Below are positions 32,696 through 53,955 of a stretch of 64,000 nucleotides of DNA, one piece after another. The stretch lies in the NCBI RefSeq assembly GCF_002854065.1, contig NZ_CP024147.1. One strand, 5' to 3'. The notes under the pieces are model-generated. The model did not search any database. It was not told the DNA's origin and was given only the letters and a program-made list of their open reading frames with translations. Source of the stretch: Escherichia coli. Lineage in GTDB: Bacteria; Pseudomonadota; Gammaproteobacteria; Enterobacterales; Enterobacteriaceae. How positions within the stretch are numbered: the first letter of the stretch is position 1; each line of letters starts with the position of its first letter. A program made the position numbers and the translations under genes.

Positions 32696-32711
32696 TCGGA
32701 GAGAGTAGATC

Positions 32712-33338
32712 ATGAAAAAGATTTGGCTGGCGCTGGCTGGTTTAGTTTTAGCGTTTAGCGCATCGGCGGCGCAGTATGAAGATGGTAAACAGTACACTAC
32801 CCTGGAAAAACCGGTAGCTGGCGCGCCGCAAGTGCTGGAGTTTTTCTCTTTCTTCTGCCCGCACTGCTATCAGTTTGAAGAAGTTCTGCATATTTCTGAT
32901 AATGTGAAGAAAAAACTGCCGGAAGGCGTGAAGATGACTAAATACCACGTCAACTTCATGGGTGGTGACCTGGGCAAAGATCTGACTCAGGCATGGGCTG
33001 TGGCGATGGCGCTGGGCGTGGAAGACAAAGTGACTGTTCCGCTGTTTGAAGGCGTACAGAAAACCCAGACCATTCGTTCTGCTTCTGATATCCGCGATGT
33101 ATTTATCAACGCAGGTATTAAAGGTGAAGAGTACGACGCGGCGTGGAACAGCTTCGTGGTGAAATCTCTGGTCGCTCAGCAGGAAAAAGCTGCAGCTGAC
33201 GTGCAATTGCGTGGTGTTCCGGCGATGTTTGTTAACGGTAAATATCAGCTGAATCCGCAGGGTATGGATACCAGCAATATGGATGTTTTTGTTCAGCAGT
33301 ATGCTGATACAGTGAAATATCTGTCCGAGAAAAAATAA
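32712..33338 (+). CDS. dsbA: Periplasmic thiol:disulfide oxidoreductase DsbA
   Basis: 208-aa ORF with signal peptide and CPHC active site ([13 protein letters not shown]). Confidence 0.95.
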
Positions 33339-33356
33339 TTCAATGTAAATTACATA

Positions 33357-33386
33357 AAGCCCGTGAATATTCACGGGCTTTTTTTA
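33357..33386 (+). terminator. dsbA rho-independent terminator
   Basis: Hairpin aaagcccgtgaatattcacgggcttt followed by T-run. Confidence 0.65.
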
Positions 33387-33451
33387 TTATTTAATAGGTG
33401 ATGCTGCCAACTTACTGATTTAGTGTATGATGGTGTTTTTGAGGTGCTCCA

Positions 33452-33727
33452 GTGGCTTCTGTTTCTATCAGCTGTCCCTCCTGTTCAGCTACTGACGGGG
33501 TGGTGCGTAACGGCAAAAGCACTGCCGGACATCAGCGCTATCTCTGCTCTCACTGCCGTAAAACATGGCAACTGCAGTTCACTTACACCGCTTCTCAACC
33601 CGGTACGCACCAGAAAATCATTGATATGGCCATGAATGGCGTTGGATGCCGGGCAACCGCCCGCATTATGGGCGTTGGCCTCAACACGATTTTCCGCCAT
33701 TTAAAAAACTCAGGCCGCAGTCGGTAA
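33452..33727 (+). CDS. insA: IS1 InsA
   Basis: 91-aa [43 protein letters not shown]. Confidence 0.9.
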
Positions 33728-34149
33728 CCTCGCGCATACAGCCGGGCAGTGACGTCATCGTCTGCGCGGAAATGGACGAACAGTGGGGATACGTCGGGGC
33801 TAAATCGCGCCAGCGCTGGCTGTTTTACGCGTATGACAGGCTCCGGAAGACGGTTGTTGCGCACGTATTCGGTGAACGCACTATGGCGACGCTGGGGCGT
33901 CTTATGAGCCTGCTGTCACCCTTTGACGTGGTGATATGGATGACGGATGGCTGGCCGCTGTATGAATCCCGCCTGAAGGGAAAGCTGCACGTAATCAGCA
34001 AGCGATATACGCAGCGAATTGAGCGGCATAACCTGAATCTGAGGCAGCACCTGGCACGGCTGGGACGGAAGTCGCTGTCGTTCTCAAAATCGGTGGAGCT
34101 GCATGACAAAGTCATCGGGCATTATCTGAACATAAAACACTATCAATAA
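33646..34149 (+). CDS. insB: IS1 InsB reading frame (transposase made as InsAB' by -1 frameshift)
   Basis: 167-aa ORF overlapping the insA 3' end; ttaaaaaactc slippery motif in the overlap. Confidence 0.85.
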
Positions 34150-34164
34150 GTTGGAGTCATTACC

Positions 34165-34665
34165 GAGTTTTTCTCTTTCTTCTGCCCACACTGCTATCAG
34201 TTTGAAGAAGTTCTGCATATTTCTGATAATGTGAAGAAAAAACTGCCGGAAGGCGTGAAGATGACTAAATACCACGTCAACTTCATGGGTGGTGACCTGG
34301 GCAAAGATCTGACTCAGGCATGGGCTGTGGCGATGGCGCTGGGCGTGGAAGACAAAGTGACTGTTCCGCTGTTTGAAGGCGTACAGAAAACCCAGACCAT
34401 TCGTTCTGCTTCTGATATCCGCGATGTATTTATCAACGCAGGTATTAAAGGTGAAGAGTACGACGCGGCGTGGAACAGCTTCGTGGTGAAATCTCTGGTC
34501 GCTCAGCAGGAAAAAGCTGCAGCTGACGTGCAATTGCGTGGTGTTCCGGCGATGTTTGTTAACGGTAAATATCAGCTGAATCCGCAGGGTATGGATACCA
34601 GCAATATGGATGTTTTTGTTCAGCAGTATGCTGATACAGTGAAATATCTGTCCGAGAAAAAATAA
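34165..34665 (+). pseudogene. Duplicated dsbA 3' fragment (from codon E43, no start codon or signal peptide)
   Basis: 34165..34723 repeats dsbA 32838..33396; translation identical to DsbA residues 43 onward; one synonymous change ccg to cca in the CPHC proline codon. Confidence 0.8.
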
Positions 34666-34675
34666 TTCAATGTAA

Positions 34676-34705
34676 ATTACATAAAGCCCGTGAATATTCA
34701 CGGGC
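34676..34705 (+). terminator. Second copy of the dsbA terminator
   Basis: Same hairpin as 33357..33386, within the 559-bp repeat. Confidence 0.6.
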
Positions 34706-34819
34706 TTTTTTTATTATTTAATAAATATAAATACATTCTGATAATGCATCCTGCCGCTGGACATTATTTCAGCATAAGTGGATATTCAAAGTTTTGCTGT
34801 TTTATCAGGGAATATTTAT

Positions 34820-36250
34820 ATGATACGTAAGTCAGCTACAGGTGTTATTGTTGCGTTAGCCGTAATCTGGGGTGGTGGCACATGGTACACAGGTACGCAA
34901 ATTCAGCCTGGTGTCGAAAAATTTATTAAAGATTTTAACGATGCTAAAAAGAAAGGTGAACATGCCTACGATATGACGTTAAGTTATCAAAATTTTGACA
35001 AAGGCTTTTTTAATTCCCGTTTTCAAATGCAAATGACATTCGATAACGGTGCACCTGATCTCAATATCAAGCCAGGCCAGAAAGTTGTATTTGATGTGGA
35101 TGTTGAGCACGGTCCGTTGCCCATCACAATGTTAATGCATGGTAATGTCATCCCAGCACTGGCAGCGGCAAAAGTGAACTTAGTGAATAATGAACTGACA
35201 CAACCGCTATTTATCGCCGCGAAAAATAAATCGCCCGTGGAAGCGACATTGCGATTCGCGTTTGGTGGCTCATTCTCCACGACATTAGATGTTGCCCCTG
35301 CAGAGTATGGAAAATTCTCTTTTGGTGAAGGCCAGTTTACTTTTAATGGTGATGGTAGTTCATTGTCTAACCTGGATATTGAAGGCAAAGTCGAAGATAT
35401 TGTTCTGCAATTTTCACCAATGAACAAAGTAACGGCAAAAAGTTTTACCATTGATTCTCTGGCGCGATTAGAAGAAAAGAAATTTCCGGTTGGTGAAAGC
35501 GAGTCGAAATTTAATCAGATTAACATTATCAATCACGGGGAAGACGTTGCCCAAATCGATGCTTTCGTTGCAAAAACCAGGCTGGATCGCGTTAAAGACA
35601 AAGATTATATCAATGTCAATCTGACCTACGAACTTGATAAGTTAACAAAAGGGAATCAGCAACTCGGTAGTGGTGAGTGGTCATTGATTGCTGAATCTAT
35701 TGATCCCTCAGCAGTGCGCCAATTTATCATCCAGTATAACATTGCGATGCAGAAGCAGCTTGCTGCACACCCTGAATTAGCAAACGATGAAGTTGCTCTG
35801 CAAGAAGTGAATGCTGCATTGTTCAAAGAGTATTTACCGTTATTACAACAAAGTGAGCCGACCATTAAACAACCGGTAAGATGGAAGAACGCACTCGGCG
35901 AACTAAATGCCAATCTGGATATCAGTATTGCCGACCCAGCCAAATCTTCATCATCCACAAACAAAGATATCAAATCGCTCAATTTTGATGTGAAGTTACC
36001 GCTTAATGTCGTCACAGAAACCGCAAAACAGCTTAATTTATCTGAAGGAATGGATGCGGAAAAAGCGCAAAAGCAGGCTGATAAACAAATCAGCGGGATG
36101 ATGACATTAGGTCAGATGTTTCAGTTAATCACGATTGACAACAATACCGCCTCGCTGCAGCTGCGTTATACACCGGGTAAAGTTGTTTTTAACGGACAGG
36201 AGATGAGCGAAGAAGAATTTATGTCTCGTGCCGGACGTTTTGTTCATTAA
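34820..36250 (+). CDS. yihF: DUF945-family putative exported protein YihF
   Basis: ORF 34778..36250 trimmed to MIRKSATGVIVALAVIWGGG (signal-like); 476 aa. Confidence 0.8.
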   Translation: MIRKSATGVIVALAVIWGGGTWYTGTQIQPGVEKFIKDFNDAKKKGEHAYDMTLSYQNFDKGFFNSRFQMQMTFDNGAPDLNIKPGQKVVFDVDVEHGPLPITMLMHGNVIPALAAAKVNLVNNELTQPLFIAAKNKSPVEATLRFAFGGSFSTTLDVAPAEYGKFSFGEGQFTFNGDGSSLSNLDIEGKVEDIVLQFSPMNKVTAKSFTIDSLARLEEKKFPVGESESKFNQINIINHGEDVAQIDAFVAKTRLDRVKDKDYINVNLTYELDKLTKGNQQLGSGEWSLIAESIDPSAVRQFIIQYNIAMQKQLAAHPELANDEVALQEVNAALFKEYLPLLQQSEPTIKQPVRWKNALGELNANLDISIADPAKSSSSTNKDIKSLNFDVKLPLNVVTETAKQLNLSEGMDAEKAQKQADKQISGMMTLGQMFQLITIDNNTASLQLRYTPGKVVFNGQEMSEEEFMSRAGRFVH

Positions 36251-36290
36251 AATACTCACTCGCCTCTGCTCATTCAGAGGCGAGCAAAAT

Positions 36291-37223
36291 TTACTTGTCC
36301 TGCCGCTGTGATGACATCAACGACGTCAGAAGTCGGTCTTTTTCCTGCCACAATGAGTTCAGCCATTGCTGAAAATGGCGCTTAAAGCTTTTGTCATTGA
36401 TGTAGTCGCCATGTAACTCATCGGCAATAGGCTGTAAATCCACATGTACGACAATCCGCGTCAGTTTACCGCTTAACATATCGAAGAACGGCTGACGGTT
36501 ATTGTCCGGATAACACAACGTAACATTAAGCAGTTTATCGAATTGTTTACCCAGTACATTTAGCGCCATCGCAATGCCTGCCGCCTTTGGTGGCAACAAG
36601 TTTTGGAAAGTGGAGTGGGTTTGCTGATGTTTTTCTTGCGTGAAACGGGAGCCTTCAACGAAATTGACAATGGTGGTGGGATGCAGGCGAAACTTTTCAC
36701 AAGAACGCCGAGTGGTTTCAACATCTTTACCACGTCGCTCCGGATGACGTAATAAATAAGCGCGGGAATAACGCTTCATAAACGGCATATCCAGCGCCCA
36801 GCACGCCAGGCCAAGAAATGGCACCCAGGCCAGCTGTTGCTTGAGGAAATATTTATTCATCGGAATGTGCTTACGAAACAGCACGCACAGTACGACAATA
36901 TCTGCCCAACTACGGTGGTTACAAATAAGCAGATACCAGTTCTTCTTACTTAACCCTTCCAGCCCGTGAACTTCCCATTGCAGGTGTGGGTTCAGATGCA
37001 GTAATACCGCCAGACCTTCACACCAGCAATACATCATAAAATCACAAAAACGCGAAACCTTTCGCCAAATGACTGGCACAGGTAGCAATAGTTTTACAAT
37101 CCCGGCAATGATGATCGGGACGGAGCAAAAAATAGTGACCAAAATGGTCAATACGATACTCAGCAAAAGGGTTATCGCAGCGAGTATTCTCGTCATAATG
37201 AATTTATTCAAAAGGTTAGCCAT
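36291..37223 (-). CDS. yihG: Putative membrane acyltransferase YihG (PlsC-like)
   Basis: ORF 36291..37247 trimmed to MANLLNKF; 310 aa; acyltransferase-like NHRSWADI motif. Confidence 0.75.
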
Positions 37224-37586
37224 AGACAGTGCGCTAAAGAAGCGCAAGGCGCAGATTTTAGCAGAAAACGACCCAAATAACGGATGATCCTTAAGGAGAA
37301 AAATAATTCATATCTATCCACATTAGAAAAAATCCCATTATCTCAATTATTAGGGATGGCTTTATTTTTAACTGCATGAAAAACAAAGACAAACATCATG
37401 CTGTAAAAAGCATGATAATAAATTAAAAGCGATGTAAATAATTTATGCACAAAGTTATCCACATGACGATTTGCGAGCGATCCAGAAGATCTACAAAAGA
37501 TTTTCACGAAAAGCGGTGAAAAACTCATGTTTTTATCCTGTCTGTGGCATCCTTTACCCATAATCTGATAAACAGGCACGGACATT

Positions 37587-40373
37587 ATGGTTCAGATCCC
37601 CCAAAATCCACTTATCCTTGTAGATGGTTCATCTTATCTTTATCGCGCATATCACGCGTTTCCTCCGCTGACTAACAGCGCAGGCGAGCCGACCGGTGCG
37701 ATGTATGGTGTCCTCAACATGCTGCGCAGTCTGATCATGCAATATAAACCGACGCATGCAGCGGTGGTCTTTGACGCCAAGGGAAAAACCTTTCGTGATG
37801 AACTGTTTGAACATTACAAATCACATCGCCCGCCAATGCCGGACGATCTGCGTGCACAAATCGAACCCTTGCACGCGATGGTTAAAGCGATGGGACTGCC
37901 GCTGCTGGCGGTTTCTGGCGTAGAAGCGGACGACGTTATCGGTACTCTGGCGCGCGAAGCCGAAAAAGCCGGGCGTCCGGTGCTGATCAGCACTGGCGAT
38001 AAAGATATGGCGCAGCTGGTGACGCCAAATATTACGCTTATCAATACCATGACGAATACCATCCTCGGACCGGAAGAGGTGGTGAATAAGTACGGCGTGC
38101 CGCCAGAACTGATCATCGATTTCCTGGCGCTGATGGGTGACTCCTCTGATAACATTCCTGGCGTACCGGGCGTCGGTGAAAAAACCGCGCAGGCATTGCT
38201 GCAAGGTCTTGGCGGGCTGGATACGCTGTATGCCGAGCCAGAAAAAATTGCTGGGTTGAGCTTCCGTGGCGCGAAAACAATGGCAGCGAAGCTCGAGCAA
38301 AACAAAGAAGTTGCTTATCTCTCATACCAGCTGGCGACGATTAAAACCGACGTTGAACTGGAGCTGACCTGTGAACAACTGGAAGTGCAGCAACCGGCAG
38401 CGGAAGAGTTGTTGGGGCTGTTCAAAAAGTATGAGTTCAAACGCTGGACTGCTGATGTCGAAGCGGGCAAATGGTTACAGGCCAAAGGGGCAAAACCCGC
38501 CGCGAAGCCACAGGAAACCAGTGTTGCAGACGAAGCACCAGAAGTGACGGCAACGGTGATTTCTTATGACAACTACGTCACCATCCTTGATGAAGAAACA
38601 CTGAAAGCGTGGATTGCGAAGCTGGAAAAAGCGCCGGTATTTGCATTTGATACCGAAACCGACAGCCTTGATAACATCTCTGCTAACCTGGTCGGGCTTT
38701 CTTTTGCTATCGAGCCAGGCGTAGCGGCATATATTCCGGTTGCTCATGATTATCTTGATGCGCCCGATCAAATCTCTCGCGAGCGTGCACTCGAGTTGCT
38801 AAAACCGCTGCTGGAAGATGAAAAGGCGCTGAAGGTCGGGCAAAACCTGAAATACGATCGCGGTATTCTGGCGAATTACGGCATTGAGCTGCGTGGGATT
38901 GCGTTTGATACCATGCTGGAGTCCTACATTCTCAATAGCGTTGCTGGCCGTCACGATATGGACAGCCTCGCAGAACGTTGGTTGAAGCACAAAACCATCA
39001 CTTTTGAAGAGATTGCGGGTAAAGGCAAAAATCAACTGACCTTTAACCAGATTGCCCTCGAAGAGGCCGGACGTTACGCCGCCGAAGATGCAGATGTCAC
39101 CTTGCAGTTGCATCTGAAAATGTGGCCGGATCTGCAAAAACACAAAGGGCCGTTGAACGTCTTCGAGAATATCGAAATGCCGCTGGTGCCGGTGCTTTCA
39201 CGCATTGAACGTAACGGTGTGAAGATCGATCCGAAAGTGCTGCACAATCATTCTGAAGAGCTTACCTTGCGTCTGGCTGAGCTGGAAAAGAAAGCGCATG
39301 AAATTGCAGGTGAGGAATTTAACCTTTCTTCCACCAAGCAGTTACAAACCATTCTGTTTGAAAAACAGGGCATTAAACCGCTGAAGAAAACGCCGGGTGG
39401 CGCGCCGTCAACGTCGGAAGAGGTACTGGAAGAACTGGCGCTGGACTATCCGTTGCCAAAAGTGATTCTGGAGTATCGTGGTCTGGCGAAGCTGAAATCG
39501 ACCTACACCGACAAGCTGCCGCTGATGATCAACCCGAAAACCGGGCGTGTGCATACCTCTTATCACCAGGCAGTAACTGCAACGGGACGTTTATCGTCAA
39601 CCGATCCTAACCTGCAAAACATTCCGGTACGTAACGAAGAAGGTCGCCGTATCCGCCAGGCGTTTATTGCGCCAGAGGATTATGTGATTGTCTCAGCGGA
39701 CTACTCGCAGATTGAACTGCGCATTATGGCGCATCTCTCGCGTGACAAAGGCTTGCTGACCGCATTCGCGGAAGGAAAAGATATCCACCGGGCAACGGCG
39801 GCAGAAGTGTTTGGTTTGCCACTGGAAACCGTCACCAGCGAGCAACGCCGTAGCGCGAAAGCGATCAACTTTGGTCTGATTTATGGCATGAGTGCTTTCG
39901 GTCTGGCGCGGCAATTGAACATTCCACGTAAAGAAGCGCAGAAGTACATGGACCTTTACTTCGAACGCTACCCTGGCGTGCTGGAGTATATGGAACGCAC
40001 CCGTGCTCAGGCGAAAGAGCAGGGCTACGTTGAAACGCTGGACGGACGCCGTCTGTATCTGCCGGATATCAAATCCAGCAATGGTGCTCGTCGTGCAGCG
40101 GCTGAACGTGCAGCCATTAACGCGCCAATGCAGGGAACCGCCGCCGACATTATCAAACGGGCGATGATTGCCGTTGATGCGTGGTTACAGGCTGAGCAAC
40201 CGCGTGTACGTATGATCATGCAGGTACACGATGAACTGGTATTTGAAGTCCATAAAGATGATGTCGATGCCGTCGCGAAGCAGATTCATCAACTGATGGA
40301 AAACTGTACCCGTCTGGATGTGCCGTTGCTGGTGGAAGTGGGGAGTGGCGAAAACTGGGATCAGGCGCACTAA
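37587..40373 (+). CDS. polA: DNA polymerase I
   Basis: 928-aa ORF ([25 protein letters not shown]) with 5' nuclease, 3'-5' exonuclease and polymerase regions. Confidence 0.97.
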
Positions 40374-40520
40374 GATTCGCCTGAACATGCCCTTTTTTCG
40401 TAAGTAAGCAACATAAGCTGTCACGTTTTGTGATGGCTATTAGAAATTCCTATGCAACAACTGAAAAAAAATTACAAAAAGTGCTTTCTGAACTGAACAA
40501 AAAAGAGTAAAGTTAGTCGC

Positions 40521-40629
40521 GTAGGGTACAGAGGTAAGATGTTCTATCTTTCAGACCTTTTACTTCACGTAATCGGATTTGGCTGAATATTTTAGCCGCC
40601 CCAGTCAGTAATGACTGGGGCGTTTTTTA
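40521..40629 (+). ncRNA. spf: Spot 42 small RNA
   Basis: gtagggtacagaggtaagatgttctatctttcagacc ... gccccagtcagtaatgactggggcgtttttta; sits between polA and engB. Confidence 0.9.
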
Positions 40630-40651
40630 TTGGGCGAAAGAAAAAATCCGC

Positions 40652-40738
40652 AATGCCTGATGCGCCATGTTTATCAGGCCAACGGTAGAATTGTAATCTA
40701 TTGAATTTACGGGCCGGATACGCCACATCCGGCACAAG
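40652..40738. repeat. REP palindromic elements
   Basis: gcctgatgcgccatgtttatcaggcc and gccggatacgccacatccggca. Confidence 0.5.
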
Positions 40739-40754
40739 CATTAAGGCAAGAAAA

Positions 40755-41387
40755 TTATTCGCCGTCCTGCGTTTCTTCTACAGGCTGCATCTCGCTAAAC
40801 CAGGTATCCAGTTTCTGCCGCAGCTTGTCCACGCCTTGTTTCTTCAGCGAAGAAAACGTTTCAACCTGCACATCACCGTTAAACGCCAGCACCGCTTCAC
40901 GCACCATATTCAATTGCGCTTTACGTGCGCTACTTGCCAGTTTGTCCGCTTTGGTCAGCAGTACCAACACGGCGATATTGCTGTCTACCGCCCACTCAAT
41001 CATCTGCTGATCCAAATCTTTCAGCGGATGGCGAATATCCATTAGCACTACCAGACCTTGTAGGCTCTGACGTTTTTCGAGGTACTCGCCGAGCGCGCGC
41101 TGCCATTTGCGCTTCATCTCTTCCGGGACTTCCGCATAACCGTACCCAGGCAAGTCAACCAGACGCTTGCCGTCAGCCACTTCAAACAGGTTGATAAGCT
41201 GGGTGCGTCCTGGGGTTTTTGAGGTACGAGCCAGGCTTTTCTGGTTAGTCAGCGTGTTCAGCGCGCTGGATTTACCTGCGTTGGAACGGCCTGCAAAAGC
41301 CACTTCAATTCCGGTATCGGAAGGTAGGTGGCGAATATCAGGCGCACTCATCACAAAATGCGTCTGTTGATAATTCAAATTAGTCAA
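40755..41387 (-). CDS. engB: Ribosome biogenesis GTPase EngB (YihA)
   Basis: 210-aa ORF with P-loop GRSNAGKSS. Confidence 0.9.
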
Positions 41388-41657
41388 AGCGGTCGTCTCC
41401 GTCAGTCAAAGCTTTGTGGCGATTATACCTGAACCATAATAAAAGGCGGATTTTTCGGCGTGAGCGTTGTAAGTAAAAGCCATACGCTTTGTGAGACATT
41501 GCCGATAGTCTTTATGCGAAATAGCAGAGAAAATTCTGCGATGCATGTCAAATAAGCTATATAAATCAGTGAATTGCTTTTATATAAAACTCTGAAAATG
41601 TGCAAATACTGATGGCGGTTGATTGTTTGTTTAAAGCAAAGGCGTAAAGTAACACCC

Positions 41658-41903
41658 ATAGAGCGAGGACGCTAACAGGAACAATGACTCAGGATGAGGG
41701 TCAGGAGCGCCAGGAGGCGAAGACAGAGGATTGTCAGGAAGACAAACGTCCGGAGACGTAATTAAACGGAAATGGAATCAACACGGATTGTTCCGGCTAA
41801 TGGAAAAACAGGGTGTGTTGGCGGCCTGCAAGGATTGTAAGACCCGTTAAGGGTTATGAGTCAGGAAAAAAGGCGACAGAGTAATCTGTCGCCTTTTTTC
41901 TTT
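41658..41903 (+). ncRNA. csrC: CsrC small RNA (CsrA-sequestering)
   Basis: Multiple GGA motifs (aggatgagggtcaggagcgccaggaggcgaagacagagga...) ending in hairpin gcgacagagtaatctgtcgcc plus T-run; between engB and yihI. Confidence 0.8.
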
Positions 41904-41968
41904 GCTTGCTTTCTGTTAGATTCCGCCGCAAATCTATACTGAATAAAACGGCTAAAAGACGAACCATT

Positions 41969-42475
41969 ATGAAACCATCTTCACCATCACGCAGCAAAGG
42001 TCATGCAAAAGCGCGTCGCAAAACGCGCGAAGAGCTGAATCAGGAAGCTCGTGACCGCAAGCGTCAGAAAAAACGTCGTGGTCATGCGCCGGGCAGCCGC
42101 GCAGCGGGCGGTAACACCACGTCAGGCAGCAAAGGCCAGAACGCACCAAAAGATCCACGTATTGGCAGTAAAACCCCTATTCCATTGGGCGTGACTGAAA
42201 AAGTCACCAAACAGCACAAACCGAAGAGTGAGAAACCTATGCTTTCACCGCAGGCGGAGTTGGAATTACTGGAAACGGATGAGCGTCTGGATGCGCTGCT
42301 GGAACGTCTGGAAGCAGGCGAAACCCTGAGTGCCGAAGAGCAATCCTGGGTGGATGCTAAACTGGATCGTATTGATGAGTTGATGCAGAAACTCGGCCTC
42401 TCTTATGACGATGACGAAGAAGAGGAAGAAGACGAGAAGCAAGAAGACATGATGCGTCTGCTGCGGGGCAACTAA
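41969..42475 (+). CDS. yihI: Der GTPase-activating protein YihI
   Basis: ORF trimmed to [23 protein letters not shown]; highly basic N-terminus and acidic C-terminus. Confidence 0.85.
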
Positions 42476-42663
42476 CGGATTGCCGCCGTGGGCCTTCCCG
42501 TTCTGCTGATAACCCTTCCGGTTATATGTTATCTGGTGTGGTTATTCGTTAAACTACAGCGGTTGTCGCGGCGACAAAAGTGGCTGCGCAACCGGCTGAT
42601 GACCCGAAACGGGCATCCGCCGGTACGCCGTAGCCGCCAGAGACGCCATCGGAAGGAGTGAGC

Positions 42664-44037
42664 ATGTCTGTACAGCAAATCGACTGGGATCTGGCCCTGA
42701 TCCAGAAATATAACTATTCCGGGCCACGATACACCTCGTACCCGACCGCGCTGGAGTTTTCAGAAGACTTCGGCGAACAGGCGTTTTTACAAGCCGTGGC
42801 GCGCTATCCTGAGCGTCCATTATCTCTCTACGTACATATCCCGTTCTGCCATAAGCTTTGTTACTTCTGCGGTTGCAATAAGATTGTTACTCGCCAGCAG
42901 CACAAGGCCGATCAGTATCTGGACGCGCTGGAGCAAGAAATCGTCCATCGTGCACCGCTGTTCGCCGGGCGTCACGTCAGCCAGCTGCACTGGGGCGGTG
43001 GAACGCCGACGTATCTGAATAAAGCGCAAATCAGCCGCCTGATGAAGCTGCTGCGCGAAAACTTCCAGTTCAATGCCGATGCGGAGATTTCGATCGAAGT
43101 CGATCCGCGGGAAATCGAACTGGATGTACTCGATCATTTACGCGCCGAAGGCTTTAATCGCCTGAGCATGGGCGTGCAGGACTTCAACAAAGAAGTGCAA
43201 CGTCTGGTTAACCGCGAGCAGGATGAAGAGTTCATCTTTGCACTGCTTAACCATGCGCGTGAGATTGGTTTTACCTCCACCAACATCGACCTGATTTACG
43301 GCCTGCCGAAACAGACGACGGAGAGTTTCGCCTTTACCCTGAAACGTGTGGCGGAGCTGAACCCCGATCGTCTGAGTGTCTTTAACTACGCGCATCTGCC
43401 GACCATTTTTGCTGCTCAGCGCAAAATCAAAGATGCTGACCTGCCGAGTCCGCAGCAAAAACTCGATATCCTGCAGGAAACCATCGCCTTCCTGACGCAA
43501 TCGGGCTATCAGTTTATCGGTATGGATCACTTTGCCCGTCCGGATGACGAGCTGGCAGTGGCCCAGCGTGAAGGCGTGCTGCATCGTAACTTCCAGGGCT
43601 ACACCACTCAGGGCGATACCGATCTGCTGGGGATGGGCGTTTCCGCTATCAGCATGATTGGCGACTGCTACGCGCAGAACCAGAAAGAGTTGAAGCAGTA
43701 CTATCAGCAAGTGGATGAACAAGGCAATGCGCTGTGGCGTGGTATTGCGCTAACGCGTGATGACTGTATTCGCCGCGATGTGATTAAGTCGCTCATCTGC
43801 AACTTCCGTCTGGATTACGCCCCTATTGAGAAACAGTGGGATTTGCACTTCGCTGATTACTTTGCGGAAGATCTCAAGCTGCTCGCCCCGTTAGCAAAAG
43901 ATGGGCTGGTGGATGTGGATGAGAAGGGAATACAGGTTACGGCGAAAGGTCGCTTGCTGATCCGCAACATTTGCATGTGCTTTGATACCTATCTGCGCCA
44001 GAAAGCGCGGATGCAGCAGTTCTCTCGGGTGATTTAA
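42664..44037 (+). CDS. hemN: Oxygen-independent coproporphyrinogen III oxidase HemN (radical SAM)
   Basis: ORF trimmed to MSVQQIDWDLALIQKY; radical-SAM CxxxCxxC (CHKLCYFCGC); 457 aa. Confidence 0.9.
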   Translation: MSVQQIDWDLALIQKYNYSGPRYTSYPTALEFSEDFGEQAFLQAVARYPERPLSLYVHIPFCHKLCYFCGCNKIVTRQQHKADQYLDALEQEIVHRAPLFAGRHVSQLHWGGGTPTYLNKAQISRLMKLLRENFQFNADAEISIEVDPREIELDVLDHLRAEGFNRLSMGVQDFNKEVQRLVNREQDEEFIFALLNHAREIGFTSTNIDLIYGLPKQTTESFAFTLKRVAELNPDRLSVFNYAHLPTIFAAQRKIKDADLPSPQQKLDILQETIAFLTQSGYQFIGMDHFARPDDELAVAQREGVLHRNFQGYTTQGDTDLLGMGVSAISMIGDCYAQNQKELKQYYQQVDEQGNALWRGIALTRDDCIRRDVIKSLICNFRLDYAPIEKQWDLHFADYFAEDLKLLAPLAKDGLVDVDEKGIQVTAKGRLLIRNICMCFDTYLRQKARMQQFSRVI

Positions 44038-44102
44038 ATAGTGAATGGCGCTTCGTTTACAAAGTAGAAAACGAAAGCGCCATCAATGTGCTGAGAACAA
44101 GA

Positions 44103-44196
44103 TTGCCTGATGCGCTACGCTTATCAGGCCTACAAAACCTGTTGAAAATATTGCTTTTGTAGACCGGATAAGGCGTTCACGCCGCATCCGGCATGA
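44103..44196. repeat. REP palindromic elements
   Basis: gcctgatgcgctacgcttatcaggcctac and gtagaccggataaggcgttcacgccgcatccggca. Confidence 0.55.
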
Positions 44197-44226
44197 ACAA
44201 AGAGCACTTCATCAGCAATCTGAAAC

Positions 44227-44337
44227 TCAACTAAACAGCCCAATCATCGCGGCACACAGCACGGCAGCAACGGCAGTTTGCGGTGTGTGGCTGTCAACTG
44301 CGCCACTCGATACCAGATTAATTATTGATTCCAGCAT
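44227..44337 (-). CDS. yshB: Small protein YshB (36 aa)
   Basis: Minus-strand ORF MLESIINLVSSGAVDSHTPQTAVAAVLCAAMIGLFS, below the 60-aa cut-off of the ORF track. Confidence 0.5.
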   Translation of the reverse strand: MLESIINLVSSGAVDSHTPQTAVAAVLCAAMIGLFS

Positions 44338-44448
44338 AATGACTCTCCCCGTTTTCCGGGCAAGATCATACTGAACTTATCGGAACAGTAAAGCGCAAAA
44401 TACCAGCAATTTGCGCTCAATAATCAATCTTTACACACAAGCCGTGAA

Positions 44449-45858
44449 TCACTCCATCCCTAACTCTTTTAACTTACGCGTCAGAGTGTTGCGGCCCCAG
44501 CCGAGTAGCCGCGCCGCTTCCTGTTTATGCCCCTGCGTATGTCGCAACGCGGTCGTCAGTAACGTCCGCTCCAGCTCTGGCTGCGCTTCGGAAAGCAGAT
44601 TTTGATGACCGGAACGTAGCGCCCGATCTGCCCACTGTGCTAACAGCGTTGCCCAACTGTCCGGTTGCATTTGCGAAGTACTCTCCGCAACCGTTGATTC
44701 AAACAGTTCACCGGGCAAATCCTGAATCAACACTTCCTGCCCGGCGGCCATCACTGTTAGCCAGCGACAGGTGTTTTCCAGCTGGCGTACGTTACCCGGC
44801 CACGCCAGACGCGTCAGAGCAGCTTCGGTTTCCGGATGCAGCAACTTCGCTTCTACGCCCAGTTCGTGCGCAGCAACCTGTAAAAAATGGCGTGCCAGGC
44901 GGGGAATATCTTCCCGACGCTCACGCAGTGGCGGCAGATGAACGCGGATAACGTTCAGGCGGTGGAACAGATCCTCACGGAACTTACCTTCCTGCACCCG
45001 CTGTTCGAGATTCTGGTGAGTGGCAGCGATAATCCGCACATCCACTTTCACCGGCGCATAGCCGCCAACGCGGTAAAACTGACCGTCTGCCAGCACGCGC
45101 AGCAAACGCGTCTGCACATCCAGCGGCATATCGCCAATTTCATCGAGAAATAATGTACCGCCATCAGCCTGTTCAAAACGCCCCTGACGAATGGTATTCG
45201 CGCCGGTAAACGCGCCTTTCTCGTGACCAAACAGTTCTGATTCGATCAAATCTTTTGGGATAGCTGCCATATTCAGCGCGATAAACGGCGCTTTGGCTCG
45301 CGGACTGTGGCGATGCAGGGCATGAGCGACCAGTTCTTTACCGGTACCGGATTCGCCGTTAATCAGCACGCTAATAGAAGAACGCGAAAGCCGACCGATA
45401 ATACGGAACACGTCCTGCATGGCTGGCGCTTCGCCGATGATATCGGTCGTTGGGCCGTTAAGCTGAACATTACGCGGCTGCTGCTGTTCCTGGTAATGAC
45501 TGATGGCGCGCTCAACCAGCGCCACGGCTTCGTCGATATCAAACGGTTTGGGCAGATAATCGAACGCCCCTTGTTGATAGGCGCTGACGGCAGCATCCAG
45601 ATCGGAATGTGCGGTCATAATGATGACCGGAAGCATCGGATGGCGCTGTTTAATCTGCTTGAGCAGCGCCAGCCCGTCCATTCCCGGCATACGGATATCT
45701 GAAAGCAGCACATCCGGCGTTTTGCTCGCCAGCGCCTCCAGTACCTCCGCGCCGTTCTCAAATGTCGTACAGGTTAAACCCGCTCCAGCGAGCGCACGTT
45801 CAAGCACCCAACGGATGGAACTATCGTCATCGACTACCCAGACTATCCCTCGTTGCAT
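44449..45858 (-). CDS. glnG: Nitrogen regulation response regulator NtrC
   Basis: ORF 44449..45918 trimmed to [23 protein letters not shown]; sigma54-activator AAA+ motif GESGTGKE; 469 aa. Confidence 0.95.
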
Positions 45859-45869
45859 AAACGTCACCT

Positions 45870-46919
45870 TTATTTCCTGATAGGCAGGTAAACCGAGAAC
45901 TCGGTATGCCCTGGCCAACTGGTAAATTCAATTTTGCCTGAATGCTGATCAATCAAATTACGAGCGATGGATAAGCCAAGCCCGGTGCCACCTTCGCGGC
46001 CGCTGACCATCGGGTAAAACAGCGTATCCTGCAAATGAGGCGGAATGCCTGGCCCGTTATCTTCCACATCAATCCGCGCCGCCAGCCGGTAGCGCTCGCC
46101 GTGTAAGGTCAGTTGAAACGCGGTGCGGGTACGCAGAATGATTTCACCACCCTCCGGCCCCAGCGCCTGTAGCGCATTGCGCACAATATTCAGCAAGACC
46201 TGTTCAATTTGATCCGGGTCGTGCGCCAGTTCCGGCAGGCTGGGATCGTAATCACGAATCAACCGCACGTTGTCCGGCAGTTCCATCGACACCAGCGTTA
46301 CCACGCGTTCAGCTACTTTGTGAATACTTTCGGTCACGCGCGTACCGGGCAGCTGCGGCCCCAACAGACGGTCGACCAGATTTCGCAGCCGGTCCGCCTG
46401 TTCGATAATCACTTTGGTATATTCCAGTAGTGACGGGTCAGGTAATGCTTTGCTGAGTAGCTGCGCCGCGCCACGTAAACCGCCAAGCGGATTTTTAATC
46501 TCATGTGCCAGGCCGCGCACTAAATCACGGGCAGCAACCTGCTGGGCGTGCTGTAGCTGTTCCTGACTTAAGCGGCGCTGGTTATCCATCGGCGCCATCT
46601 CCAGCAGGATCATGCCGTCCGGCATACGCTGGGCCGTCACAGAAAGGATATGCGAGCGACCGTCGATCACCAGCGTCACTTCGTTATCGGTAAAACCTTG
46701 CCCCGCCTCCAGACTTTCTTGCATCAGCTCAATATTTAATGAGAAGTAGCTCAACAGTTCCGGTAACGGCGTACCAAACAATTTGCGGGAGCTTTGGGCG
46801 AGCAGTTGTTGCGCGGCGGGGTTGGCGTAATGGATCGCCAGGTTGTCATCGATTAACAAAATACTGTTAATCAGCGAGTTGAGGATCTGCCCAGCATCGG
46901 GCTGCGTGCCTGTTGCCAT
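45870..46919 (-). CDS. glnL: Nitrogen regulation sensor kinase NtrB
   Basis: 349-aa ORF with H-box HEIKNPL. Confidence 0.95.
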
Positions 46920-47092
46920 AAAGCAGTCTCCTGAACAGGTTGCACCATTTTAGTGCATTATAGCTTTTTACGGATAAAAAGCGCGAAGCATCAGAGAATT
47001 GACGGAGAAAAAAGCCCATGCAGAGATGGGCTGAAAGTTTCCACGGCAACTAAATCCCGGCGTTGTTGCGCCGGGTAGTACAACTTCAACTA

Positions 47093-48502
47093 TTAGACGC
47101 TGTAGTACAGCTCAAACTCTACCGGATGCGGAGTCATACGCACGCGGTCATCTTCTTCGCGACGCAGAGCGATGTACGCATCGATCGCTTCATCCGTGAA
47201 CACGCCACCGGCTTTCAGGAACTCGCGGTCCAGATCCAGCTCGTTCAGTGCTTCTTCCAGAGAGCCTGCAACTTGTGGGATCTCTTTCGCTTCTTCTGGC
47301 GGCAGGTCATACAGGTTTTTGTCCATGGCTTCGCCCGGATGGATCTTGTTCTTGATGCCATCAAGACCGGCCATCAGCAGGGCAGCAAAGCACAGGTACG
47401 GGTTAGCCGCCGGGTCCGGGAAACGCACTTCGATACGACGCGCTTTCGGAGAAGAAACCACCGGAATACGGATAGACGCAGAACGGTTGCGTGCAGAGTA
47501 AGCCAGCATTACCGGTGCTTCGTAGCCCGGGACCAGACGCTTATAAGAGTTGGTGGTCGGGTTTGCCAGGGCGTTAATCGCTTTAGCGTGTTTGATTACG
47601 CCGCCAATGTAGTACAGCGCCTGCTCAGACAGACCTGCGTATTTGTCGCCTGCGAACAGGTTAACGCCGTTTTTAGACAGAGACATGTGGCAGTGCATAC
47701 CGGAGCCGTTATCACCGAACATCGGTTTTGGCATAAAGGTCGCGGTTTTACCGAAGCGGTGCGCTACGTTGTGCACAACATATTTGTAGATCTGAATTTC
47801 GTCAGCTTTTTTGGTCATGGTATTGAAGCGGGTAGCCACTTCGTTCTGACCAGCAGTCGCTACTTCGTGGTGATGGGCTTCAACCACCAGACCCATCTGT
47901 TCCATCACCAGACACATTTCAGAACGAATATCCTGAGCAGAGTCTACCGGCGGAACCGGGAAGTAACCGCCTTTCACTGCCGGACGGTGACCTTTGTTAC
48001 CACCTTCATATTGGGTGGAGGAGTTCCATGCGCCTTCGATATCGTCGATAGCAACATGAGAACCGGAGATAGATGATCCGAAACGGATGTCATCGAACAG
48101 GAAGAATTCAGGTTCTGGCCCGAACAGTACGGTGTCGGCAATGCCAGTAGAACGCAGGTAATCTTCAGCGCGCTTCGCGATGGAGCGCGGGTCACGGTCA
48201 TAGCCTTGCAGGGTGCCAGGTTCAAGGATGTCGCAACGGATAATCAGGGTGGAGTCGGCGAAGAACGGGTCAATCACTGCGGTGGATGCGTCTGGCATCA
48301 GCACCATGTCGGATTCGTTAATGCCTTTCCAGCCGCCAATCGAGGAGCCGTCAAACATTTTGCCTTCTTCGAAGAATTCAGCATTCACCTGATGAGCAGG
48401 GATAGTGACGTGCTGTTCTTTACCTTTGGTATCGGTGAAGCGCAAATCAACAAACTTCACTTCGTGCTCGTTCAGCATCGTCAGTACGTGTTCAGCGGAC
48501 AT
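47093..48502 (-). CDS. glnA: Glutamine synthetase
   Basis: 469-aa [31 protein letters not shown]. Confidence 0.97.
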
Positions 48503-48585
48503 ACTTTAACTCTCCTGGATTGGTCATTGTCGTCGTGGTAACGAAATCTGCAATTATTTTGGCCGTGTCGCCGTAAAAAAGATAA

Positions 48586-48602
48586 AGCGAAAACTGTGCC
48601 AA
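48586..48602 (-). promoter_or_regulatory. glnAp2 sigma54 promoter (-24 GG / -12 GC)
   Basis: Minus strand reads ttggcacagttttcgct; located just upstream of glnA. Confidence 0.7.
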
Positions 48603-48654
48603 CTTTTAAATTGCCCCTAAAAGGCGTTATCATGCTTAACATCGTGCAAAAGGG

Positions 48655-48726
48655 CTGCACCATGATGTGAATGTTGCACCAATATAGTGCTTCAATGGAA
48701 ACATTAAGCACCATATTGGTGCAATG
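48655..48726. promoter_or_regulatory. NtrC enhancer sites upstream of glnA
   Basis: Repeated tgcacc(a)...tggtgca dyads. Confidence 0.6.
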
Positions 48727-48874
48727 ACCTTTGGATAACCCTTTTTATGCTCCGTGAAAGCGATCACAAAGGGACTCTGCAATACTTGTTTGCGGAGGAT
48801 GTTTGTGATCCTGTTTTGTAGTGCGATTAATCCGTGTACAATAACGCGCTATTTCTAATGCCTGAGGCAAAGTT

Positions 48875-50698
48875 GTGATCGAAAAATTGCGTAATATCGC
48901 CATCATCGCGCACGTAGACCATGGTAAAACCACCCTGGTAGACAAGCTGCTCCAACAATCCGGTACGTTCGACTCTCGTGCCGAAACCCAAGAGCGCGTG
49001 ATGGACTCCAACGATTTGGAGAAAGAGCGTGGGATTACCATCCTCGCGAAAAACACCGCTATCAAATGGAATGATTACCGTATCAACATCGTTGATACCC
49101 CGGGGCACGCCGACTTCGGTGGTGAAGTTGAACGTGTAATGTCCATGGTAGACTCAGTGCTGCTGGTGGTTGACGCATTTGACGGCCCGATGCCGCAAAC
49201 GCGCTTCGTAACCAAAAAAGCGTTTGCTTACGGCCTGAAGCCGATTGTTGTTATCAACAAAGTTGACCGCCCTGGCGCGCGTCCTGATTGGGTTGTGGAT
49301 CAGGTATTCGATCTGTTCGTTAACCTCGACGCGACCGACGAGCAGCTGGACTTCCCGATCGTTTACGCTTCTGCGCTGAACGGTATCGCGGGTCTGGACC
49401 ACGAAGATATGGCGGAAGACATGACCCCGCTGTATCAGGCGATTGTTGACCACGTTCCTGCGCCGGACGTTGACCTTGACGGTCCGTTCCAGATGCAGAT
49501 TTCTCAGCTCGATTACAACAGCTATGTTGGCGTTATCGGCATTGGCCGCATCAAGCGCGGTAAAGTGAAGCCGAACCAGCAGGTTACTATCATCGATAGC
49601 GAAGGCAAAACCCGCAACGCGAAAGTCGGTAAAGTGCTGGGCCACCTCGGTCTGGAACGTATCGAAACCGATCTGGCGGAAGCTGGCGATATCGTAGCGA
49701 TCACGGGCCTGGGCGAACTGAATATTTCTGATACCGTTTGCGACACGCAAAATGTGGAAGCGCTGCCGGCACTCTCCGTTGATGAGCCGACCGTTTCTAT
49801 GTTCTTCTGCGTTAACACCTCGCCGTTCTGCGGTAAAGAAGGTAAGTTCGTAACGTCTCGTCAGATCCTGGATCGTCTGAACAAAGAACTGGTACACAAC
49901 GTTGCGCTGCGCGTAGAAGAAACCGAAGACGCCGATGCGTTCCGCGTTTCTGGTCGTGGCGAACTGCACCTGTCTGTTCTTATCGAAAACATGCGTCGTG
50001 AAGGTTTTGAACTGGCGGTATCCCGTCCGAAAGTAATCTTCCGTGAAATCGACGGTCGTAAACAAGAGCCTTACGAAAACGTGACGCTGGACGTTGAAGA
50101 ACAGCATCAGGGTTCTGTAATGCAGGCGCTGGGCGAACGTAAAGGCGACCTGAAAAACATGAATCCAGACGGTAAAGGCCGCGTACGTCTCGACTACGTG
50201 ATCCCAAGCCGTGGTCTGATTGGCTTCCGTTCTGAGTTCATGACCATGACTTCCGGTACTGGTCTGCTGTACTCCACCTTCAGCCACTACGACGACGTAC
50301 GTCCGGGTGAAGTGGGTCAGCGTCAGAACGGTGTACTGATCTCTAACGGTCAGGGTAAAGCGGTAGCGTTCGCGCTGTTCGGTCTGCAGGATCGCGGTAA
50401 GCTGTTCCTCGGTCACGGTGCAGAAGTTTACGAAGGTCAGATTATCGGTATTCATAGCCGCTCTAACGACCTGACTGTAAACTGCCTGACCGGTAAGAAA
50501 CTGACCAACATGCGTGCTTCCGGTACTGACGAAGCCGTTGTTCTGGTTCCGCCTATCCGCATGACTCTGGAACAAGCTCTGGAGTTCATCGATGATGACG
50601 AACTGGTAGAAGTGACTCCGACCTCTATCCGTATTCGTAAACGTCACCTGACGGAAAACGATCGTCGTCGCGCCAACCGCGCACCGAAAGACGATTAA
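48875..50698 (+). CDS. typA: Ribosome-associated translational GTPase BipA/TypA
   Basis: 607-aa ORF with GTG start; G1 motif AHVDHGKTT. Confidence 0.95.
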
Positions 50699-50715
50699 TT
50701 TCGTTTTTTAGTCAT

Positions 50716-50748
50716 AAAAAACCTGCCAGCGATGGCAGGTTTTTTTTT
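50716..50748 (+). terminator. typA rho-independent terminator
   Basis: Hairpin aaaaacctgccagcgatggcaggt followed by tttttttt. Confidence 0.7.
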
Positions 50749-50914
50749 GCCTGTCGTGAGCGCACACCAATGCGAGTATCTCCCTTATAAGTCTGTGGTT
50801 ACGTCAATAGAGAGCTTTGTCACAATTATCTGCAAAGTCATACGCCGTTAATTGCTTTCTTTTTTGGCGTAAGCGTAAGATGCTTCATCTGGTTTAAACC
50901 AAAAGGATTAAACA

Positions 50915-51550
50915 ATGGCGGAGAATCAATCCACCGTAGAAAATGCAAAAGAGAAACTGGATCGGTGGTTGAAAGATGGCATCACCACGCCGGGTGGAAA
51001 ACTCCCTTCAGAAAGAGAGCTGGGAGAACTGCTGGGCATTAAACGTATGACGCTGCGCCAGGCGTTGTTGAACCTCGAGGCAGAATCCAAAATCTTCCGT
51101 AAGGATCGTAAGGGGTGGTTCGTGACCCAGCCGCGATTTAATTACAGTCCGGAGCTGTCGGCGAGCTTTCAGCGGGCCGCAATTGAGCAAGGGCGAGAGC
51201 CTTCCTGGGGGTTTACCGAGAAAAACCGTACCAGCGATATTCCCGAGACGCTCGCGCCACTGATTGCAGTGACGCCATCAACTGAACTCTATCGCATCAC
51301 CGGCTGGGGGGCGCTGGAAGGACATAAAGTTTTCTATCACGAAACATATATTAATCCTGAAGTTGCTCCGGGCTTTATTGAACAACTTGAAAACCACTCA
51401 TTTTCTGCAGTCTGGGAAAAGTGCTACCAAAAAGAGACGGTAGTAAAAAAATTGATTTTCAAACCCGTCAGAATGCCGGGCGATATCAGCAAGTATCTTG
51501 GCGGTTCTGCGGGTATGCCAGCGATATTAATTGAAAAGCATCGCGCCGAC
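50915..51550 (+). pseudogene. yihL: yihL (GntR-family regulator) truncated at codon 212 by IS1
   Basis: ORF 50915..51577 runs into the IS1 left end and stops after 7 IS1-encoded codons (GDAANLLI); HTH N-terminus intact. Confidence 0.75.
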
Positions 51551-51605
51551 GGTGATGCTGCCAACTTACTGATTTAGTGTATGATGGTGTCTTTGAGGTG
51601 CTCCA

Positions 51606-51881
51606 GTGGCTTCTGTTTCTATCAGCTGTCCCTCCTGTTCAGCTACTGACGGGGTGGTGCGTAACGGCAAAAGCACTGCCGGACATCAGCGCTATCTCTG
51701 CTCTCACTGCCGTAAAACATGGCAACTGCAGTTCACTTACACCGCTTCTCAACCCGGTACGCACCAGAAAATCATTGATATGGCCATGAATGGCGTTGGA
51801 TGCCGGGCAACCGCCCGCATTATGGGCGTTGGCCTCAACACGATTTTCCGCCATTTAAAAAACTCAGGCCGCAGTCGGTAA
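51606..51881 (+). CDS. insA: IS1 InsA
   Basis: Protein identical to copy 1 InsA. Confidence 0.9.
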
Positions 51882-52303
51882 CCTCGCGCATACAGCCGGG
51901 CAGTGACGTCATCGTCTGCGCGGAAATGGACGAACAGTGGGGATACGTCGGGGCTAAATCGCGCCAGCGCTGGCTGTTTTACGCGTATGACAGGCTCCGG
52001 AAGACGGTTGTTGCGCACGTATTCGGTGAACGCACTATGGCGACGCTGGGGCGTCTTATGAGCCTGCTGTCACCCTTTGACGTGGTGATATGGATGACGG
52101 ATGGCTGGCCGCTGTATGAATCCCGCCTGAAGGGAAAGCTGCACGTAATCAGCAAGCGATATACGCAGCGAATTGAGCGGCATAACCTGAATCTGAGGCA
52201 GCACCTGGCACGGCTGGGACGGAAGTCGCTGTCGTTCTCAAAATCGGTGGAGCTGCATGACAAAGTCATCGGGCATTATCTGAACATAAAACACTATCAA
52301 TAA
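51800..52303 (+). CDS. insB: IS1 InsB reading frame
   Basis: Protein identical to copy 1 InsB. Confidence 0.85.
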
Positions 52304-52318
52304 GTTGGAGTCATTACC

Positions 52319-53306
52319 GCCGGGGTATTGGGGCATCCTCTTTGTCTGGGCGCTATTTGGCGTTACTTGCGACATGATGAACTGGCCGGTCTTACTCAAG
52401 TCGGTAAGTCGATTGGGCAATAGCGAACAACAAGGTCGGTTGTTTGGCTTCTTCGAAACAGGGCGTGGCATTGTCGATACCGTGGTGGCATTTTCTGCGT
52501 TGGCAGTATTTACCTGGTTTGGCAGTGGCTTATTGGGTTTTAAAGCAGGCATCTGGTTCTATTCCCTTATTGTGATTGCCGTAGGCATTATTATTTTCTT
52601 TGTCCTGAATGACAAAGAAGAGGCACCGTCCGTTGAGGTGAAAAAAGAAGACGGAGCATCGCAAAACACCAGTATGACCTCGGTGCTGAAAGACAAAACT
52701 ATCTGGCTTATCGCTTTCAACGTCTTCTTCGTTTACGCGGTTTACTGTGGCCTGACATTCTTCATTCCATTCCTGAAAAACATCTATCTATTGCCCGTTG
52801 CGCTGGTGGGGGCTTACGGCATCATTAACCAATACTGTCTGAAAATGATTGGTGGACCGATTGGTGGCATGATTTCAGATAAGATCCTGAAATCGCCGAG
52901 TAAATATCTATGCTACACCTTTATCATCAGTACCGCTGCGCTCGTACTGTTGATTATGCTGCCGCACGAAAGTATGCCGGTCTATTTAGGGATGGCATGT
53001 ACGCTGGGCTTTGGCGCGATAGTCTTTACACAGCGAGCCGTATTTTTTGCACCTATCGGCGAAGCAAAAATTGCTGAAAATAAAACAGGCGCGGTGATGG
53101 CGTTGGGTAGCTTTATTGGTTACGCCCCGGCGATGTTCTGCTTTAGTCTGTATGGCTACATTCTGGATTTAAATCCGGGGATTATTGGCTACAAAATCGT
53201 GTTTGGCATTATGGCCTGCTTCGCATTCTGTGGTGCGGTGGTTTCCGTAATGCTGGTTAAGCGTATTAGCCAACGTAAGAAAGAGATGCTGGCGGCTGAA
53301 GCTTAA
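52319..53306 (+). pseudogene. yihN: MFS-type transporter gene 3' portion (yihN-like), 5' end replaced by IS1
   Basis: ORF 52305..53306 starts inside IS1; multi-TM C-terminal region; no start codon or promoter of its own. Confidence 0.65.
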
Positions 53307-53310
53307 TTAA

Positions 53311-53367
53311 TGGCCGGATGTGCTTAATCCGGCCAAAAAAAATCCGCTGAATCCCCAGCGGATTTTT
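53311..53367. terminator. Bidirectional terminator (two hairpins with A-run and T-run)
   Basis: ggccggatgtgcttaatccggcc aaaaaaaa tccgctgaatccccagcggat ttttt. Confidence 0.55.
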
Positions 53368-53427
53368 CGAAGTTTCAATTTCAGGATACTTCTTGCTCGG
53401 CAACTACCAGTTCAACATTCTCTTCAC

Positions 53428-53766: not shown

Positions 53767-53955
53767 ATCGTCGCTGGTTATCGAAACTCGTTGGCAATTT
53801 ACACCTGAATCTTAACCATTCATCTATTGCGAAAAAGCCAGTGAAATTACTCTGCTTTTTCGCAATCAGCATCACAAGATTACCCTTATTGCCACATAGC
53901 CAAACCCATCCTTTCCCGCTACAGTTAATTTCTTGTGGCGCGAAAGGAGGCAAAA

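Follow-up and report, generated by a model that had tools for sequence, protein, structure and literature searches.

We analysed a stretch of 64,000 nucleotides of Escherichia coli DNA (NCBI RefSeq assembly GCF_002854065.1, contig NZ_CP024147.1; hereafter the window, with positions counted from its first letter) and found that, of its two copies of the insertion sequence (IS) IS1, one sits exactly where the two units of a 559-bp tandem duplication of dsbA sequence meet. This full-length copy, IS1-A (33397..34164, plus strand), is in effect flanked by a target duplication of 559 bp that replaces the usual 9 bp. The other full-length copy, IS1-B (51551..52318, plus strand), is inherited and stands in place of 1,442 bp that are present in E. 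coli K-12 MG1655 (hereafter K-12). The two copies are independent scars in an IS1-rich E. coli lineage and were acquired in separate events, since three related strains carry IS1-B and the genes between the two copies but no IS1-A.

To the left of IS1-A lies an intact dsbA gene (32712..33338, plus strand), which is collinear with K-12 and encodes a protein of 208 aa that matches the NCBIfam model NF008198 (DsbA) over its full length with 415 bits. It is followed by the dsbA terminator hairpin (33356..33381, plus strand). A repeat search revealed that a 559-bp direct repeat touches both ends of the element. The first copy of the repeat (32838..33396, plus strand) ends with TATTTAATA against the left end of IS1-A, and the second (34165..34723, plus strand) follows directly upon the right end and comprises a 5'-truncated dsbA' and a second copy of the terminator, after which the native sequence continues into yihF. 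Both copies map to one and the same K-12 interval (7545-8103 of K-12 locus L003), which reaches from codon 43 of dsbA to 58 bp past the dsbA stop codon, and they are identical at 558 of 559 positions. The lone mismatch is a G at 32861 in the first copy and an A at 34188 in the second; K-12 and strains 100416 and CUWW06, the two relatives whose sequence covers the region, carry the G as well. At the outer ends of the duplication there is no IS, and positions 32837/32838 and 34723/34724 are continuous, as in K-12. Both intact ends of IS1-A are therefore joined to chromosomal positions 559 bp apart, with the polarity that duplicates the interval between them. On the left, the junction reads TTATTATTTAATA/GGTGATG (the k-mer spanning chromosome and IS1 being TATTTAATA/GGTGATGC), and on the right, where IS1 meets dsbA codon 43, it reads CATTACC/GAGTTTTTC. 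Because dsbA and yihF retain their native flanking sequence, the event was probably phenotypically silent. RecA recombination between the 559-bp repeats would excise IS1-A cleanly.

The closest relatives of the window come from strain 100416 (Gambia, stool) and strain CUWW06 (Thailand, wastewater), both about 99.96% identical to it, and from the long-read NCTC assembly GCA_900449015.1, which is 99.95% identical. An origin from Shigella, considered at first since the IS1-A region had no match among complete E. coli genomes, was rejected, as two such genomes agree with the remainder of the window at about 99.96%. IS1-A and the 559-bp duplication are absent from all three, and their dsbA-yihF junction is uninterrupted; the 559-bp unit is single-copy in each of them and in K-12. 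All three do carry IS1-B, with both junctions identical to those of the window. The IS1-A event is thus recent and private to this strain. Four positions of the window (34188, 44867, 51591 and 53095) differ from every relative that covers them, and one of these private single-nucleotide polymorphisms (SNPs) changes GlnG (R331H), giving an allele often encountered in other lineages of E. coli (599 blocks).

None of 5,426 complete E. coli genomes contained the junction between IS1 and dsbA codon 43, and exact scans of contigs from species-representative genomes and from metagenomes returned no instance of it. Exact look-ups of the truncated DsbA' protein in forms of 144, 134 and 166 aa recovered nothing but dsbA genes with a frameshift, or random contig ends whose first bases were native and not IS1, and equivalent look-ups of YihF, PolA and GlnG with H331 yielded proteins too widespread to point to a second carrier. 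The left junction of IS1-A, by comparison, has an exact counterpart of like orientation in VTB97585v, an unrelated strain in which it belongs to a canonical insertion with a 9-bp duplication of TATTTAATA. Comparison with other genomes, which a sequence-only reading of the window had proposed, found one junction of each copy with an intact duplication: the left junction of IS1-A in VTB97585v and the right junction of IS1-B in strain ET734.

Both copies are genuine IS1 elements. They are 768 bp long, lie in direct orientation, are complete to the last base at their ends and differ from each other at a single site, IS1 position 41 (T at 33437 in IS1-A, C at 51591 in IS1-B). Each is bounded by the IS1 terminal inverted repeats, imperfect repeats of about 23 bp (GGTGATGCTGCCAACTTACTGAT and, as the reverse complement, GGTAATGACTCCAACTTATTGAT), and each contains the insA and insB' open reading frames (ORFs; 33452-33727 and 33646-34149 in IS1-A), in whose overlap lies the A6C motif TTAAAAAAC at which IS1 undergoes its -1 frameshift. 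The two ORFs jointly span NCBIfam NF033558 (IS1 family transposase; positions 1-81 and 76-199 of 199), and the annotation of the relatives describes the same element as an IS1B family transposase with a programmed frameshift. When the flanks were compared, no 9-bp direct repeat was found at the ends of either copy. The missing 8-9 bp duplication leaves their membership of IS1 unaffected and marks both copies as something other than simple insertions. As controls, the IS1 insertions at four further loci (L001, L002, L024 and L048) all have 9-bp duplications, including simple insertions in srkA and yihF of other strains. The sequence-only reading had the coordinates, length, orientation and position-41 difference exactly right, quoted the flanks correctly and noted that 9-bp repeats are absent at each copy. 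It had attributed their absence to IS-mediated rearrangement in place of simple insertion, and this explanation is borne out by our analysis, although the 559-bp direct repeat around IS1-A and the 1,442-bp gap relative to K-12 at IS1-B had both been overlooked.

We consider it probable that IS1-A arose by one aberrant insertion catalysed by the transposase. In this scheme, the hotspot that IS1 commonly uses, immediately beyond the dsbA terminator, would have been the target of the left end of the element. The target of the right end would have been codon 43 of dsbA, located either on the same duplex, which would imply a long stagger, or on the sister chromatid in the wake of a replication fork; fill-in or fork repair would then have completed both 559-bp copies. 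The structure itself, its absence from the relatives, the intact ends and the known IS1 target on the left are observed, and the single event, with its sister-chromatid or long-stagger detail, is inferred. Target choice by the transposase is favoured over a random break because the left junction exactly reuses the canonical IS1 junction of VTB97585v. As a general proposition, that IS1 transposase can join its ends to targets hundreds of base pairs apart, on a sister or looped duplex, and so create a duplication of several hundred base pairs in one step, is tentative and on balance somewhat doubtful. If it were true, the locus would constitute natural evidence that IS-centred tandem duplications are due to the transposase choosing its targets, as opposed to capture at random breaks, one of the two joints being a known canonical IS1 site.

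Several points weigh against an origin of IS1-A in one aberrant insertion. From one sequence, a single event is indistinguishable from several quick steps that lead to the same end product. IS1 is reported to make duplications of 8-9 bp (PMC12065110), and we found no report in the literature of a stagger of several hundred base pairs for this element. In addition, two of the four SNPs private to the window (34188 and 51591) lie within the 2.6 kb of repeated DNA, where they may hint at polishing noise or may be real mutations that followed the event. Finally, the structure is seen in this one assembly, with no second genome carrying the junction between IS1 and dsbA codon 43.

Of the competing explanations, a path of several steps through a large duplication seeded by IS1-B fares best, although we regard it as unlikely. 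Such a path would begin with replicative transposition of IS1-B into codon 43 of dsbA on the sister chromosome, or with reintegration of an excised circle of IS1 and dsbA'-yihL', and would pass through a transient tandem of about 17.9 kb (dsbA'-yihL') with IS1 at its joint and the intermediate junction GCGCCGAC/IS1/GAGTTTTTC, in which yihL' is linked through IS1 to dsbA codon 43. An IS1 adjacent deletion reaching to the hotspot past dsbA, or recombination between IS1 copies, would then leave 559 bp of the first copy. This route yields the exact end product observed with standard IS1 reactions only, and it starts from an element with the orientation of IS1-A that the lineage already possessed and that is, in the relatives, identical in sequence to IS1-A. 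Deletions linked to IS1 have also occurred repeatedly in the lineage, and the hotspot at the left junction is equally usable as a deletion target. The path nevertheless requires two or three rare events, and no intermediate was seen in any relative; moreover, all IS1 copies seen in the lineage are identical, so the identity of IS1-A and IS1-B is uninformative as to the donor.

We also considered whether the succession of duplication, IS1 and duplication might not exist on a single molecule, owing to an error of assembly or a mixed population. The structure is unique to this assembly, and the private SNPs are over-represented in repeated DNA. However, an assembler cannot invent the junction of IS1 with GAGTTTTTC without reads that contain it; the single-base difference between the 559-bp copies means that reads with G and reads with A must both exist; and a chimera would need two independent IS1 insertions, 559 bp apart and at high frequency, in one culture. 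An artefact is accordingly highly unlikely in our view. The difference at IS1 position 41, which the sequence-only reading had put forward as a sign that the two copies are not a collapsed assembly repeat, is real but provides weak evidence against assembly problems, and IS1-B of all three relatives has T at this position.

Little credence can likewise be given to a scenario in which gene transfer united two different insertion alleles, a canonical IS1 insertion beyond the dsbA terminator and a dsbA::IS1 allele at codon 43, which then underwent a homologous crossover within IS1. The recombinant would combine the left flank of the first allele with the right flank of the second, the right junction of the canonical allele being CATTACC/TATTTAATA. 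The first parental allele is known in nature, in VTB97585v, and the single G/A difference between the 559-bp copies could reflect two parents. VTB97585v, however, represents an unrelated lineage with 99.5% identity, compared with about 99.96% for true relatives, and neither the genome and metagenome scans nor the 5,426 complete E. coli genomes yielded an IS1 at dsbA codon 43. The mismatch is explained equally well by a later mutation, and the A at 34188 is unlike K-12 and both covering relatives.

Capture of IS1 at a pre-existing double-strand break, or at an unresolved duplication intermediate, without target choice by the transposase, has been put forward as a hypothesis by Ngan et al. (mBio 2024). 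In line with that model, IS1-A has no short target duplication and lies exactly at the duplication joint, like the IS481 case that those authors described (PMC11708052). In contrast, the left junction has the exact position and orientation of a canonical insertion that transposase made in another strain, and neither end of IS1-A has lost a base; we judge capture at a break to be very improbable here. That a composite IS1 transposon or a reciprocal exchange between IS1 copies lies behind the mismatched flanks is hardly credible: a direct IS1 pair does bracket the segment as in Tn9-like elements, and IS1-flanked DNA transposes frequently as a composite when IS1 is active (PMC12065110), but the outer flanks, TATTTAATA and GCCGGGGTA, do not form a target duplication, the interior is in collinear order with K-12 and the adjoining DNA, and the relatives possess the interior and IS1-B without IS1-A, so that the composite-transposon interpretation of the sequence-only reading is not upheld. 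Two further candidates were rejected. Flank swapping between the IS1 copies by inversion or reciprocal exchange is incompatible with the flanks, no pair of which among the four forms a 9-bp repeat, and a selection scenario, in which a dsbA::IS1 mutant is rescued by duplication, founders on the geometry: no intact dsbA could be restored from that allele in this arrangement.

IS1-B, by contrast with the mechanistically unsettled IS1-A, shows nothing unusual. It links yihL', a 3'-truncated gene for a GntR-family regulator (50915..51550, plus strand) whose ORF runs 27 nt into the element and ends at 51577, to yihN', a 5'-truncated gene for a major facilitator superfamily (MFS) transporter that begins with GCCGGGGTA (52319..53306, plus strand; defined by alignment to K-12). 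The 1,442 bp of K-12 sequence that are gone comprise the 3' end of yihL, all of yihM and the 5' end of yihN. IS1-B has no target duplication because its flanks are separated in K-12 by 1,442 bp (25083 and 26526 of locus L003), which is the arrangement left by an IS-adjacent deletion. Its right junction, between IS1 and GCCGGGGTA, is that of a canonical insertion in strain ET734, where a different IS1 variant, IS1X2, is flanked by a 9-bp duplication of GCCGGGGTA, and the retained junction thus matches a canonical target, as is also expected of an IS-adjacent deletion. Most likely, IS1 inserted into yihN at GCCGGGGTA, after which about 1.45 kb leftward into yihL would have been lost, either by IS1 adjacent deletion through intramolecular transposition or by recombination with a second IS1 in yihL. 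Either route would remove the target duplication, and both would give the same sequence. IS1-B is old and inherited, because the same junctions are found in three related strains. The fusion protein of YihL' with IS1 sequence is listed in its exact form of 220 aa in 85 blocks of public assemblies, and the yihL-IS1 junction also occurs in assemblies that are just 98.5-98.8% identical to the window, a presence in diverged backgrounds that fits both deletion routes. Adjacent deletion or recombination between IS copies is the classical explanation of an IS without a target duplication (PMC11708052; long-term evolution experiment, LTEE), and IS1-B resembles such cases in having one junction at a canonical target, the other flank 1.4 kb away in the reference and no duplication.

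Beyond these two copies, IS1 is active in this lineage and often leaves deletion scars. In CUWW06 there are two further IS1 copies nearby (32696-33463 and 42256-43023 of locus L042), neither with a target duplication; by annotation, one lies between fabY and yiiF and the other between a fragment of a phosphotransferase system (PTS) IIA gene and a fragment of rhaT, genes that are normally non-adjacent. Every IS1 copy seen in the lineage is identical (768/768). Three of the four IS1 junctions in the window (33388-33396, 51542-51550 and 52319-52327) recur exactly in unrelated or diverged E. coli (loci L024, L048, L005, L007 and L008), which suggests either strong IS1 insertion hotspots or spread by recombination.

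Overall, IS1-A is a new, small and natural case of a known class of structures whose mechanism is unsettled, and most of what else we describe is ordinary IS1 scarring. IS-centred duplications have been described only recently and their mechanism is disputed, an IS that lacks a duplication usually being ascribed to deletion or recombination. In Pseudomonas fluorescens, a duplication-IS-duplication (Dup-IS-Dup) structure around IS481, without a short target duplication, was seen experimentally and called 'not readily explained' by the authors (Ngan et al., mBio 2024, PMC11708052), and in E. coli evolved in the laboratory, tandem amplifications of ampC had IS1 in their junctions (bioRxiv 10.1101/2025.02.07.637019). 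As in these junctions, IS1-A is a new IS between direct chromosomal repeats, with intact ends, no short duplication and no outer IS. Unlike them, it is found in a wild isolate, its duplication measures 559 bp as opposed to about 60 kb or to amplicons of kilobases to hundreds of kilobases, it is not obviously selected, and one of its joints is a canonical IS1 insertion site. Long direct repeats of variable length are made routinely by elements of the IS1634/IS1549 type. A category of 'insertion with long target duplication' has also been defined for restriction-modification genes of Helicobacter and Neisseria (PMC2853133). IS1-A is similar to these insertions in being flanked by direct repeats of hundreds of base pairs that derive from a single-copy target; however, other elements and enzymes are involved there, and for IS1 such an outcome would be an exception and not its rule. 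A short, clean and natural duplication-IS1-duplication provides a test case of PCR size that could help to decide between a long duplication made by the transposase and capture of an IS at breaks. For annotation pipelines it is a caution that a long duplication can lie behind a record of 'no target duplication'.

The segment bracketed by the two copies (34165..51550) is 17,386 bp long and has its native order, as established by alignment to K-12 and by Rfam. It contains dsbA', yihF, yihG, polA, spf, yihA/engB, csrC, yihI, hemN, yshB, glnG, glnL, glnA, typA/bipA and yihL'. Alignment to K-12 supports the gene list of the sequence-only reading, and Rfam matches to Spot 42 (40511-40629) and CsrC (41658-41911) support its two small RNAs (sRNAs). 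This inner 17.4 kb is collinear with K-12 and with the DNA outside both IS1 copies, and it is native chromosome, not a composite transposon that has moved. Pairs of IS1 in direct orientation are able to cause amplification or to transpose as a composite (PMC11253626; PMC12065110), and the present pair resembles Tn9-type composites and IS1-bounded amplicons in its direct arrangement around a chromosomal segment; it differs from Tn9-type composites in having no outer duplication, a native interior, copies acquired at different times and no sign that the unit has moved or been amplified. The sequence-only reading had described the pair as a substrate for amplification of the segment, which is sound as a potential, since two direct IS1 copies could in principle seed a duplication or amplification of polA-glnA, but the window contains one copy of the segment and no sign of amplification. 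Deletion of the segment would remove the essential engB/yihA and polA, and only a duplication is expected to be viable. The bracketing pair is itself of little weight, IS1-rich E. coli lineages being full of such pairs, and serves to mark polA-glnA as amplifiable.

Within the bracketed segment, gathering-level Rfam matches to the sRNA families ES222 and STnc370 were obtained at 48686-48793 and 50683-50751. Two intergenic spacers are shorter than their K-12 counterparts: that between hemN and yshB (44195-44226) measures 32 bp compared with 81 bp, and that between glnA and glnL (47033-47080), which overlaps the glnZ sRNA of K-12, measures 48 bp compared with 160 bp. Imperfect inverted repeats at 44099-44223 and 60438-60572, about 16 kb apart, are 75-85% complementary, and the first arm (44099-44223) is also an 82% match to the yiiF-fdhE intergenic region of K-12; these repeats are probably of the repetitive extragenic palindromic (REP) type.

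To the right of IS1-B, about 540 bp (53347-53888) have no match in K-12, which carries ompL and the sulfoquinovose operon (yihO-yihV, csqR) at this location; the annotation of the relatives shows nothing here beyond pieces of a DeoR regulator and of a PfkB kinase. No IS is present at this joint. Further along, a 2,046-bp insertion relative to K-12 (57316-59361) lies between fabY and yiiE. In the annotation of 100416 it comprises a transposase and a partial hypothetical gene, and in CUWW06 it is absent and an IS1 copy lies in its place.

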